Below are positions 2,050 through 14,569 of a stretch of 64,000 nucleotides of DNA, in pieces; the stretch's first letter is position 1, and each line of letters starts with the position of its first letter. The notes beneath the pieces were generated by a model. The model was not told where the DNA came from. It saw nothing but the letters and a program-made list of their open reading frames with translations, and did not search any database. Both the position numbers and the translations under genes were made by a program. This DNA is from a virus: positions 1 through 64,000 of IMG/VR virus record IMGVR_UViG_3300003653_000052, one strand, 5' to 3'.

Positions 2050-2058
2050 AGATACAGT

Positions 2059-2088
2059 GATGCTCCGGGGTTATATCCCTGGGGCATC
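2059..2088 (+). terminator. 12-bp stem-loop after the ORF at 1663-2049
   Basis: GATGCTCCGGGG-TTATAT-CCCTGGGGCATC (two G:U pairs) is followed by TTATAGTT, a weak U-tract. Confidence 0.5.
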
Positions 2089-2745
2089 TTATAGTTAGCG
2101 TGTAGCCATACTGTTTGGTTGCGCTTTCAAATACAAACATAGTAGGCCGTAGTTTCTGGGTGTTCCTCTTAGAGGTGCTAGCACACATTGGAGACAGTGG
2201 ATAACTCTATGGGTTACTGTACACATGACTTATACCTTAGAGTCATTATTTAGTGTAAGAATAGTTGCGGTATAATAAGTGTTAAGTAAGGCGAAAATCT
2301 GAGAACATATAAAGACCTGCAAAAGATGGGAAACCAATTGAAGCAATTATTTCTTGCGCTTTATTTAAATAATCAAAAGGTTAATTACTACACCCTATCA
2401 AGGGTCTTTAATGTATAGTATAATGCTTTGTGCCTTAGCATACATTATTAATGTTATTAGGGAATACGTAAGTATTTACCACGCTGAGCTTGCTCAAATA
2501 ACAAGTAGTAGTAATTAACTGATTGGTTGTTTATTTATTAATATTTGTATCAGCTAGGCTGTGTCCATTCAATTGGTATATATGAACGAGCCAGACAGTA
2601 TGGAAGTAATGTTACTGGTTTATGGAGTATGTGTTATTTTTATAAGGATAGACTCTAAATCTAGACTATGTATTAGATACAAGCTCAATTAGGCGTTATT
2701 CCAGTCAACGTGAACCCAGAAGCACCTTTAGAAAGTGTGGAGGGT
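2089..2745 (+). ncRNA. candidate large structured RNA (ORF-free, G+C-enriched island A)
   Basis: No ORF of 60 aa or more lies on either strand. Hand counts give 43-45% G+C in lines 2101 and 2161, against about 22% in coding lines. A 13-bp long-range helix pairs 2106-2118 with 2591-2603 (one G:U, valid only on the + strand). There are many local hairpins, including a GUAA tetraloop hairpin at 2462-2477. Confidence 0.4.
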
Positions 2746-2786
2746 TTACAGACTTAAAATTAATTATTAATCTAATAACAAATCAA

Positions 2787-5949: not shown

Positions 5950-6335
5950 GGGGCCAACGGGTAAGCACCTTAAGTCTAATTAATAATAAGCAAGTAGAGC
6001 ATTGTCTATTAATGTGAGCTCTTTAAAACTAGTAGATACAAGAATAATTGGCAACAATGATTCAAGCCTTGGACTCGTTCAAGATGTTAAATTTGCAATG
6101 TCTCACAATTTACTCTCTGGAGTATATGTAGGCAATCCAGTTGGAGAACTGGAGCTTGTATAACATAGCAAAACCTCAAAAAACTATCTCTGAGTTATCT
6201 GAGTGCAAAGGTTTGTTAAAACCTTAAAAGATCAAAATAAATTAAATATTCTGTTTGTAGAAGATAATACATTCAAACTTGTAGAAATTTGTTAATTAAC
6301 TTAGGGCAACGAGGGTTCAACTCCCTCTGGCTCCA
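5950..6335 (+). ncRNA. ssrA: tmRNA-like gene (transfer-messenger RNA), about 386 nt
   Basis: The 5' end GGGGCCA (5950-5956) pairs with TGGCTCC (6328-6334) as a 7-bp acceptor stem with G3:U70. The T arm is GAGGG-TTCAACT-CCCTC (6311-6327) and the discriminator is A6335. A long bulged P2 helix forms between GCACCTTAAGTCTAATTAA (5965-5983) and TTAATTAACTTAGGGC (6292-6307). An H-type pseudoknot pairs 5996-6000 with 6018-6022 and 6002-6008 with 6033-6041. It ends 8 nt before an open 37-codon frame (6050-6160, stop 6161-6163). Length and topology match bacterial tmRNA. Confidence 0.78.
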
Positions 6336-6339
6336 CTAA

Positions 6340-12205: not shown

Positions 12206-13288
12206 ATGGAAACTAAAGAAAAAATACAGGATCTTGCTTTACAAGCAATACTTCCTTACAAAAGAGCTGGTGTTAATATATCTATGGGAACAGGTAAAAC
12301 ACTATTAGGATTAAATCATATGGAAGATCATTATACAGATTATTGTAGATTTTTAGTAGTGGCTCCTAAAAAGTCAATATTTCAATCCTGGAAAGATGAT
12401 ATAGAAAAGTTTAATATGCAACATCTTCTACCTCATATTACATTTACCACTTACATATCTTTAAGTAAGCAAGATACAGATTATGATGTAGTATATTTAG
12501 ATGAAATGCATAATTTACTTGGTCATTATTCTACATGGTTAGAACTTTATAATGGTAATATATTAGGTTTAACAGGAACACCTCCAAAATCTAAACATTC
12601 TACTAAAAGTAAAATGATTAGTAAATATTGTCCAATAGTTTATACTTATAGTACTGATACAGCTATTGATGATGCTATTTTAAATGATTATGAGATTAAA
12701 ATTCACATGTTATCTTTATCTTCTGAAAAATCTATAAAGATGACTAAAGGAGATAAACAATGGTATACTTCTGAACAAGATACTTATGATTATTGGACTA
12801 GACGAATAGATGATGCATTAACTGGTAAAGAAGTGCAAATTACTAGATTAATGAGAATGAAAGCAATGATGGAATTTCCAAGTAAAGAATACTTAACTAA
12901 GGTATTAATGAATCAAATTCCTAGCAAATGTCTTATATTTGCTAATACAATTGAACAATCTTTAAAATTATGTTCTCACAGTTATAACAGTAAAGACGCA
13001 CTTTCTTTGGCAAATTTACAATTATTTAAAGAAGGAGTTATAAATCAACTTTCTTGTGTATTAATGCTTTCAGAAGGTGTAAATATTCCAGATTTAAAAG
13101 AATCTATAATATTACATTCTTATGGTGCTTCATCTCCTAAAGGACTTCAAAGATTAGGTCGTTGTTTAAGACTTAATCCAAAAGATAAAGCTATTATTAA
13201 TGTATTATGTTATAAAAATACTGTAGATGAGAAATGGTGTAAAGATTCTTTTAGTTCATTGGATCAGTCTAAAATAAAATATGTATAA
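12206..13288 (+). CDS. SF2 (DEAD/DEAH-like) helicase
   Basis: Motifs are MGTGKT (Walker A), LDEMHN (motif II), LTGTPP (III) and LQRLGRCLR (VI). Confidence 0.8.
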   Translation: METKEKIQDLALQAILPYKRAGVNISMGTGKTLLGLNHMEDHYTDYCRFLVVAPKKSIFQSWKDDIEKFNMQHLLPHITFTTYISLSKQDTDYDVVYLDEMHNLLGHYSTWLELYNGNILGLTGTPPKSKHSTKSKMISKYCPIVYTYSTDTAIDDAILNDYEIKIHMLSLSSEKSIKMTKGDKQWYTSEQDTYDYWTRRIDDALTGKEVQITRLMRMKAMMEFPSKEYLTKVLMNQIPSKCLIFANTIEQSLKLCSHSYNSKDALSLANLQLFKEGVINQLSCVLMLSEGVNIPDLKESIILHSYGASSPKGLQRLGRCLRLNPKDKAIINVLCYKNTVDEKWCKDSFSSLDQSKIKYV

Positions 13289-13569
13289 TGGGACAATTTA
13301 TAACAGAGAAAGAAATAGCAGAAGAGCATTTCTCTCAATTAACAGAACAACAACACTCACTTGTATTAATAAATGATGATTTTAATAGTTTTACTCATGT
13401 AATGAATTGTCTTATGACACATTGTGATCATACATTAGAACAAGCAGAACAAATTACTGTTTTAGTTCATCATAAAGGTAGATGTTCAATAAAACACGGA
13501 CCAATTAAGAAATTAACTCCTCTTAGTAATACTTTAAATTTTAACAAATTAACAACTATAATAGAATAA
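13288..13569 (+). CDS. clpS: ClpS-like Clp-protease adaptor homologue
   Basis: LVLINDDFNSFTHVMNCLMTHCDHTLEQAEQITVLVHHKGRCSIKHG follows the ClpS core pattern (vvL.NDd.n.f.fV...L......A......vH..G.a.v). The size (93 aa) is also ClpS-like. Confidence 0.7.
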   Translation: MGQFITEKEIAEEHFSQLTEQQHSLVLINDDFNSFTHVMNCLMTHCDHTLEQAEQITVLVHHKGRCSIKHGPIKKLTPLSNTLNFNKLTTIIE

Positions 13570-13697
13570 TGTCAGAGATTAAACCAAAAAGAAAAAGATG
13601 TATAAGACCTGTGTTTTCTACAAGAAAAATTATTAACATGGTATTAGAAGGTAAAATTCTTAAATATGTACCACCAATATTCACAATATGCCAGTAA
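13569..13697 (+). CDS. possible small basic ORF (42 aa)
   Basis: Hand translation gives MSEIKPKRKRCIRPVFSTRKIINMVLEGKILKYVPPIFTICQ. It bridges two track ORFs with overlaps at both ends. Confidence 0.3.
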   Translation: MSEIKPKRKRCIRPVFSTRKIINMVLEGKILKYVPPIFTICQ

Positions 13698-13966
13698 CAG
13701 CTTTATTACTTCCAGATGCTGGAGGTTCTACTAAAAAAATCAAATTTATTACTCAAGATTCTAAAGAACATTTATCAGTTGATATTTATTTATGTGATGA
13801 GAATTGGAAAGAAATGGGTAAACCAACAGAAGGTACTCATATTGATAATGAAGAAACTTATCATAGAATTCTTAGAGAAGAGGCTTCAAAACGAGATCAT
13901 TATGTATTAGAACATTCTACGAATCCTGAGTGGAACCCTGGACATGTTGCAGAAGAAGACAGATAA
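13688..13966 (+). CDS. hypothetical protein (92 aa)
   Basis: ORF track. Confidence 0.55.
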   Translation: MPVTALLLPDAGGSTKKIKFITQDSKEHLSVDIYLCDENWKEMGKPTEGTHIDNEETYHRILREEASKRDHYVLEHSTNPEWNPGHVAEEDR

Positions 13967-14028
13967 AAAATGTCCAATCAAATGGAGGTAAGAGCAACAG
14001 TATGATATAGTTTATACTGCCTCTTTAG

Positions 14029-14123
14029 GGGTAAGTGAGGGAATTGGCTAAACCTTATACCAGCACTGGTTAGTGGCAAACGAAAATAAGTCCATCTTAT
14101 AGGTTCAAATCCTATCTTATTCA
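14029..14123 (+). tRNA. tRNA-like gene or tRNA mimic, 95 nt, G3:U70 acceptor, anticodon domain not foldable by hand
   Basis: The acceptor GGGTAAG/CTTATTC forms 7 bp, with G2:U71 and G3:U70. T8-G9 follow. The D arm is AGGG-AATTGGCTAAA-CCTT. The T arm is ATAGG-TTCAAAT-CCTAT (14099-14115) and the discriminator is A14123. The 42 nt between the D and T arms gave no 5-bp/7-nt anticodon hairpin. Confidence 0.5.
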
Positions 14124-14478
14124 CAATAACAGACGTTGTCGTGTTATAATCTTATATTTTGTATAAAAAGTGAAGCTCATACTAATTAGAGTTTTTTAAT
14201 AGAGATGTTAATGAGTTTATACATTATATAAGTTGTTATGGAGTTAGAGGTTCCCATCTTATACATACCCTGTTAGTGGTGTATGTTTAAAGGATGTACA
14301 TATTTTATTTTTATTATTTTCTTTATTTTCTATCCTTCTAGAAAGGTTTAAAACACGTCCTTAGGAGCTGAGGGTATTCTTATCTGTTGCAATCAGATGT
14401 GAAACAAGAGTTAGATTATAAATCTAAGACCCCTACTAAAAATAAGAAAAAATGACTTCCAGGAATAGACTGGAATTT
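14124..14478 (+). ncRNA. ORF-free spacer between the two tRNA-like genes with several hairpins; possible RNA
   Basis: Hairpins include ATCTG-TTGCAAT-CAGAT (7-nt loop containing GCA), TTAGAT-TATAA-ATCTAA and ACATACC..GGTGTATGT. No canonical tRNA could be assembled. Confidence 0.25.
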
Positions 14479-14569
14479 GACAAGGTAACTCAGTTGGTTA
14501 GAGTATCTGATATTTGATCTAAAAGGACACTTAATCTTAAAGTCAGTGGTTCGAGTCCACTCCTTGTCA
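14479..14569 (+). tRNA. tRNA gene with canonical acceptor, D and T arms but an aberrant 40-nt anticodon/variable region (identity undetermined)
   Basis: The acceptor GACAAGG/CCTTGTC is a perfect 7 bp, followed by TA. The D arm is ACTC-AGTTGGTTA-GAGT. The T arm is AGTGG-TTCGAGT-CCACT and the discriminator is A. The middle region is about 17 nt longer than in a type-I tRNA. The best candidate stem, TCTGA/TCTAA, has 2 mismatches around loop TATTTGA. Confidence 0.7.

Follow-up and report, generated by a model that had tools for sequence, protein, structure and literature searches.

What is the role of a tRNA-shaped element that has no recognizable anticodon arm? Such an element, hereafter shell 1, lies within a window comprising the first 64 kb of a complete phage record (126,226 bp, direct terminal repeats, approximately 27% G+C). 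The initial annotation offered three readings of it: an alanine-accepting tRNA mimic, a processing punctuation mark for the flanking structured RNA, or a divergent type-II tRNA missed by hand folding. We consider it fairly probable that shell 1 is a non-decoding tRNA shell serving as RNase P/RNase Z-type punctuation, which would release a new phage non-coding RNA.

The phage is presumed to be crAss-related, with a host from Bacteroidota. The cassette that contains shell 1 (Table 1) occupies a 627-nt gap between a 92-aa and a 46-aa open reading frame, and a second assembly record carries the same 628 bases with 0 differences. Helicase and ClpS genes are located upstream of the gap; the ClpS gene (13288–13569 in the window) accompanies the helicase gene in 74 of the 80 related helicase-anchored loci. 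Sigma-70 sites occur at chance level (10 vs. 9.1). The 92-aa protein, which belongs to no PHROG family and has only weak fold look-alikes obtained from a low-confidence predicted model, was used as the anchor for collecting syntenic loci in related phages. Matches to a CCA enzyme, RtcB (PF01139), splicing endonuclease (PF01974), Ro60/TROVE, integrase (PF00589), and reverse transcriptase were all absent from the phage genome, and thus host enzymes would act on any transcript of the cassette.

The tRNA-like anatomy described in the initial annotation was confirmed. The acceptor (14029–14035/14116–14122) pairs at all 7 positions, including G2·U71 and G3·U70; U8 is present; the D stem AGGG/CCTT pairs at 4/4 positions and is accompanied by G18G19; and the T arm (14099–14115) combines a 5/5 stem with the loop TTCAAAT. 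A73 is located at 14123 and is followed by CAA. Compared with the canonical tRNA family (RF00005), shell 1 has the acceptor, U8, the D arm, and the T stem with a TTCRANY loop, and lacks the 5-bp/7-nt anticodon arm with U33; the Rfam alignment skips this arm (28.1 bits at a cut-off of 29 bits, E-value 5e-5 for the genome). A strict scan for acceptor, D, and T arms identified two shells in 126 kb vs. none in 40 dinucleotide shuffles, the second match (14479–14569) being the element termed shell 2.

As had been reported, the middle of shell 1 contains no register with a 5-bp/7-nt hairpin; the best candidate pairs at 4/5 positions, lies 10 nt too far downstream, and lacks U33. ARAGORN, which had been proposed as a check, makes no call at shell 1 with intron mode on or off; under relaxed thresholds it produces hundreds of noise calls, and among the calls listed there is no intron-free one at 14029. 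The hairpin CACT-GGTT-AGTG, previously given as the best local fold, yields to ACCA-GCAC-TGGT (14059–14070) plus GTGG/CCAT, which RNAfold prefers; the two folds are mutually exclusive, and neither is better than shuffles (z = +0.1). Nor did a missed type-II tRNA emerge, as no anticodon arm appears in any register or after any modeled intron excision. The length of 95 nt would agree with a tRNA whose anticodon loop holds a short, protein-spliced intron, and in some distant-relative shells (L100, L102, and L109) a long insert does sit on a retained 5-bp stem. This explanation is nonetheless scarcely plausible, since no excision restores a type-I anticodon arm (excisions were modeled for type-I products), the ortholog in locus L123 (65 nt) is shorter than a tRNA, and neither a splicing endonuclease nor RtcB is matched in the phage genome. 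Shell 1 is a real, selected, non-decoding tRNA shell. A prophage attachment site was also considered and rejected, since the element is a full shell, not the 3′ portion of a tRNA, and the genome has no integrase match.

Table 1. Features of the shell cassette, with positions given in window coordinates.
Feature	Position	Strand	Remarks
92-aa protein, upstream syntenic anchor of the cassette	13688–13966	+	No PHROG family
Conserved leader with hairpin 13990–14025 ending 3 nt before shell 1	13969–14027	+	Common to loci L238, L239, and L245
Shell 1, tRNA-shaped: acceptor, D, and T arms and A73 present; anticodon arm and encoded CCA absent	14029–14123	+	Rfam, strict scan, slot in 9 distinct orthologous shells
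Variable middle of shell 1, replacing anticodon and variable arms; forms nothing beyond weak 4-bp hairpins	14057–14098	+	42 nt
Enclosed structured RNA, 355 nt (343–456 nt in relatives)	14124–14478	+	From N73+1 of shell 1 to the base before shell 2
Near-invariant 5′ hairpin, motif stem-RRC-GT(N)-GYY-G-stem	14126–14147	+	After every orthologous shell
GNRA (GAGA) tetraloop hairpin, predicted branched 5′ domain	14196–14211	+	Closing pair changes from G-C to A-U
Predicted 3′ domain closed by long-range U-rich/A-rich helix	14305–14455	+	Helices hand-assigned
Hairpin with loop palindrome TTGCAA (14387–14392), candidate kissing loop	14382–14398	+	Palindrome present in each of the 6 distinct full-length copies
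Final hairpin with purine-rich loop of the GAATAG type, located 3 nt before shell 2	14457–14475	+	Double changes at 5/5 pairs
Shell 2, ARAGORN "tRNA-Lys", Lys-like 5′ half	14479–14569	+	Called anticodon stem pairs at 3/5 positions only

Most of the syntenic loci share one layout: leader, shell 1, conserved non-coding RNA, hairpin, and shell 2. The leader hairpin is paired in 36/36 alignment cells, with a double change at one pair, which is not above shuffles. Nine distinct shell-1 sequences, 65–113 nt long, were compared. Their acceptor and T stems are paired in 104 of 108 cells by many pair types; G1-C72, U8, and A73 are invariant, U precedes the shell (position −1) in 8/9 sequences, and the trailer is CAA. 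The middles vary between 13 and 61 nt and show identity at the shuffled level, except for near-identical sister copies and the pair L239/L245 (73%). In the 65-nt shell of L123, the middle has shrunk to a 13-nt tetraloop hairpin.

Judging from pairwise sequence comparison, shell 1 is exchanged as a whole unit. Loci L242 and L257 are 94% identical in the enclosed RNA, 100% in shell 2, and 51% in shell 1, and L245 and L261 are 97% identical in the leader, 82% in the enclosed RNA, and 49% in shell 1, at a shuffled baseline of 45–51% in both cases. Exchange of shell 1 with retention of the enclosed RNA is the expected outcome if it is shape that is selected at this position, rather than identity or anticodon. 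In every copy, the enclosed RNA with its invariant start follows directly on the 3′ boundary of shell 1, and all 7 of the 7 distinct sequences preceding the invariant 5′ motif of that RNA are tRNA top halves. A decaying tRNA pseudogene might be suspected from the T arm, which exactly matches that of tRNA-Tyr(GUA) of another phage (the top half resembles a phage tRNA-Tyr, with 21 identical bases, L118), from the G·U pairs in the acceptor, and from a middle that folds no better than shuffles. Decay, however, would not spare 16/16 stem pairs while erasing one arm, nor would it produce this outcome in each of nine shells that differ in sequence and share one slot; we regard this explanation as largely refuted and very improbable.

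An alanine-accepting mimic, similar to the tRNA domain of tmRNA, would agree with A73 and with the G3·U70 pair, which by itself can confer alanine acceptance on tRNA-Tyr (PMC9976931). The bacterial alanine identity set, however, comprises A73, G2-C71, G3·U70, G4-C69, and G20 (PMC9976931), and the window shell has two of these five elements, with G2-C71, G4-C69, and G20 missing. Among the nine orthologous shells, G3·U70 is present in two, A3-U70 in five, and G3-C70 in two; alanine mimicry is therefore not the conserved role, and we find it extremely unlikely for shell 1. Both times G3·U70 stands beside G2·U71, a combination that C-to-U drift would be expected to produce when the genome is AT-rich.

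Shells of this kind are not confined to the syntenic loci. One pattern in IMG/VR produced at least 97 distinct matches, and 90 of those listed are full shells with long unrelated middles (L124–L237). Among these 90, four have a canonical-looking anticodon arm and nine encode CCA; U48 is found in 86/90 and A73 in 76/90, neither being part of the pattern, although a Leu-type D loop is imposed by it. Other T arms lie near approximately one-half of the listed shells, and many of the shells are solitary.

This retention of U48 and A73 bears on a further possibility, that shell 1 is a leucine-charged non-decoding tRNA, for instance, one that donates leucine for N-terminal tagging, the tag being recognized by ClpS, whose gene lies 460 nt upstream. 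The window shell has A73, A15:U48, G18G19, and U54/U55/C56/A58; of the leucine identity elements (A73, A15:U48, G18G19, A20a, and D/T loop contacts), it has all but A20a. Moreover, E. coli tRNA-Leu variants that lack both the anticodon arm and the variable arm can still be charged (PMC9976931). If charged at all, shell 1 would appear from its features to fit LeuRS better than AlaRS. Conservation speaks against leucine charging, as A15:U48 is present in only 4/9 orthologs and G18G19 is lost or shifted in several of them, and most of the 74/80 helicase-anchored loci with ClpS have no shell within 5 kb. A link between ClpS and the shell was rejected as non-specific on the latter ground, and leucine charging appears improbable.

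Shell 2 shows a similar loss of the anticodon arm, which Rfam also drops. When compared by blastn with cultured phages, only its 5′ half finds matches, in tRNA-Lys genes. The middle of shell 2 resembles two tandem degenerate Lys-type anticodon arms, first TTT-like and then CTT-like, neither of which is canonical. A phage tmRNA was found at 5950–6338 of the window (Rfam, 59.7 bits); it was missed by ARAGORN and is followed by approximately 500 nt of largely non-coding sequence. Since shell 2 has no real anticodon arm, the phage possesses a tmRNA and two shells, and no convincing decoding tRNA. In relatives, the slot of shell 2 is occupied by a 77–78-nt shell with a conserved 18-nt loop (L239:1151–1228, L245:1129–1206, L242:4123–4200, L261:2795–2872, and L001:3353–3429). 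The loop is almost invariant, contains AGAAACA twice, and is carried by a covarying 3-bp stem; 12 nt of this family match the variable arm of a phage tRNA-Tyr (L118:1600–1790). One relative (L001/L121) has kept shell 2, and shell 1 and the enclosed RNA are absent from it; together with the invariant loop in relatives, this suggests that shell 2 may have a job of its own. A covariance model of shell 2 (R1), applied to 33 phage records that are more distant, recovered no family member other than the known copy.

The RNA enclosed by the two shells matches no Rfam family, exact patterns for it gave no match in IMG/VR or GTDB, and a covariance model of part of it (R2) likewise gave no member other than the known copy when run on 33 more distant phage records. 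Six distinct full copies, collinear and derived from one narrow clade, were aligned. RNAalifold reported double changes at 21/68 and 29/62 predicted pairs, some of the long-range pairs probably being alignment artifacts. The predicted fold, built from helices assigned by hand, consists of a branched 5′ domain with the GNRA hairpin and a 3′ domain closed by the U-rich/A-rich helix. The inner helix of the 3′ domain, AGGG/CCCT in the window and AGGA/TCCT or AGGAG/CTTCT in relatives, was recovered by RNAalifold. Folding z-scores are modest (−1.3 to −2.3, with −0.6 to −2.2 for the opposite strand). A short hydrophobic peptide in the U-rich stretch was rejected, as its frame and start are not conserved and the stretch instead pairs with the A-rich strand. 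A search for antisense targets in the phage's own genome returned only low-complexity A/T matches of 12–29 nt.

Two elements of the enclosed RNA may point to its activity. The core of the palindromic loop is UGCA or AGCU across copies, and in OLE and GOLLD, loops that kiss between molecules are marked by palindrome switching (10.1101/2024.12.08.627333). By this analogy, the enclosed RNA probably dimerizes via the palindromic loop; the UGCA/AGCU switch is one lineage-level change, in AU-rich sequence with 8–11 palindromes per copy. The RRC-GT(N)-GYY-G hairpin motif of the 5′ end has one copy in this genome, one match in 20 shuffles, and up to four copies in the longer cassettes of relatives, and its recurrence hints at a shared protein or nuclease site. 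As a guess, the enclosed RNA would bind protein or self-assemble in the manner of RNAs such as GOLLD, ROOL, and OLE. In relatives, extra non-coding modules upstream of the leader each carry this hairpin (L261:1940–2300, L245:400–620, L238:415–530, and L239:518–640); they are absent from the window and have no Rfam match. A different conserved upstream non-coding module, likewise without Rfam match, was observed in L242:3345–3553, L257:4450–4654, and L246:2081–2288. Another segment of the window (2050–2786), a 738-nt, ORF-free, G+C-enriched gap, contains neither a tRNA shell nor the repeated hairpin motif.

From the observed anatomy, conservation, shell exchange, and covariation we infer the following processing route. 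A plus-strand transcript would carry the leader hairpin, shell 1, the 355-nt RNA, and shell 2, along with the surrounding early/replication genes. Host RNase P would cut the 5′ end of each shell, and an RNase Z-type 3′-end nuclease would cut at or just after N73 of shell 1. These cuts would free the enclosed RNA, the putative payload and a new family, with defined ends, the 5′ end being set by shell 1 and the 3′ end by shell 2. RNase P measures the acceptor–T stack, depends more on the T loop than on the D loop, and also processes the tRNA-like marks of the long non-coding RNAs MALAT1 and MENbeta; precursors that lack CCA are cut by RNase Z (PMC4919913). If only the acceptor–T stack and the elbow matter, the anticodon region can drift or carry unrelated inserts, and whole shells can be replaced. 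Punctuation of a flanking structured RNA, one of the roles suggested initially, is well supported by the comparative evidence: as expected of a processing mark, a conserved tRNA top half is fixed at the boundary of a conserved RNA, and the anticodon is dispensable. Several observations count against punctuation. Shell 2 persists in L001/L121 without shell 1 or the enclosed RNA and may act on its own, the folding z-scores of the enclosed RNA are modest, and the RNA is represented by six distinct full copies with several helices assigned by hand. A C74 at the start of the trailer, as after shell 1, slows Bacillus RNase Z, and many of the 90 shells listed from other phages stand alone between genes.

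The latter observation would suit a different role, in which the end product is the mature shell. With CCA added, it would act as a decoy or scaffold, sequestering host proteins that read the tRNA top half (acceptor-end toxins, tRNA-sensing defenses, or EF-Tu) or displaying its insert, and the neighboring RNA would simply be a co-transcribed operon member. The size of the class (90 of the 97 distinct pattern matches listed from IMG/VR are full shells, many of them alone) and the conserved loop of the relatives' shell 2, which survives alone in L001, favor such a product. Shell 1, however, conserves shape only, its middle can be a tetraloop, and its 3′ boundary coincides with the start of the enclosed RNA throughout. 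We consider a decoy or scaffold unlikely as the main role of shell 1, although it and punctuation can both hold.

Punctuation by shell 1 can be extended to a broader model, which we put forward tentatively and hold to be possible but doubtful. Phages would possess operons of non-coding RNAs in which interchangeable non-decoding shells, forming a large unannotated class, serve as punctuation, and the present cassette would release a new RNA family of approximately 350 nt that self-assembles via the palindromic kissing loop and whose repeated hairpin motif is read by one protein.

The principle of a processing mark is already known from eukaryotes. In mitochondrial tRNA punctuation, tRNA-shaped modules set the ends of adjacent RNAs. 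The mascRNA and menRNA modules likewise set the end of the adjacent RNA on MALAT1 and MENbeta, with no need for decoding (PMC4919913). These marks are eukaryotic or real tRNAs, whereas the phage cassette has two full shells with D arms, which are swapped between lineages and for which cleavage is proposed from comparison. Partial precedent comes from the stable T4 species 1 and 2 RNAs (rnaC and rnaD), phage RNAs of a tRNA region whose function is unknown (PMC3014915, PMC12685909); rnaC ends in a perfect T arm with 5/7 acceptor-like pairing. Unlike the phage shells described here, rnaC has no D arm, encloses its own hairpins, and shows no sequence relation to them, and its T4 neighbors are real tRNAs.

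The tRNA-like domain of YrlA has a permuted arm order. Together with other YrlA-type Y RNAs and the tRNA-like domain of tmRNA (PMC4201824), it belongs to the tRNA mimics that retain the top half without an anticodon. Shell 1 differs from tmRNA by the absence of a conserved G3·U70 and of a tag frame, and the phage has a separate tmRNA; it differs from YrlA by its canonical arm order, and there is no Rfam Y RNA match and no Ro60/TROVE match in the genome. In engineered tRNA scaffolds, foreign sequence similarly replaces the anticodon arm and the tRNA frame is processed and stabilized (PMC3753655, PMC3401473); shell 1 is natural, and the insert is dispensable in its slot. The enclosed RNA can be compared with GOLLD, ROOL, and OLE (10.1101/2024.12.08.627333), large structured RNAs of which GOLLD and ROOL are phage-borne near tRNA islands. 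It has no match among Rfam covariance models, is smaller (343–456 nt) and AU-rich, and is flanked by non-decoding shells. A literature search of partial coverage returned no account of this cassette or of anticodon-less shells as a class in phages; the new elements here are the enclosed RNA family, the shell swaps documented above, and the minimal shell of 65 nt.

Among phage "pseudo-tRNAs" and unusual ARAGORN calls, such as the "tRNA-Lys" at shell 2, many may be selected processing marks or scaffolds rather than decoding tRNAs or debris, and codon-usage arguments built on phage tRNA counts would be affected if pseudo-tRNAs are processing marks. Paired shells may also point to the ends of unknown non-coding RNAs and thus provide a search handle. 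With the natural swaps and the 65-nt minimal shell, punctuation lends itself to a direct test with RNase P, and the compact enclosed RNA is a candidate for structural studies alongside GOLLD, ROOL, and OLE.

Individual shells of the wider class show further variation. The most common acceptor among the 90 shells listed is AGTCAGG/CCTGACT. Three tRNA-Arg(TCT)-like shells (L102:1501–1610, L109:1501–1603, and L100:1501–1610) carry a structured insert of 35–45 nt on an intact anticodon stem, and two of them have A19 opposite U56 in place of G19:C56. Finally, two long tRNA-shaped elements, L113:2719–2871 (153 nt) and L003:6077–6238 (162 nt), combine a near-normal anticodon arm with a giant variable arm, and the former encodes CCA.
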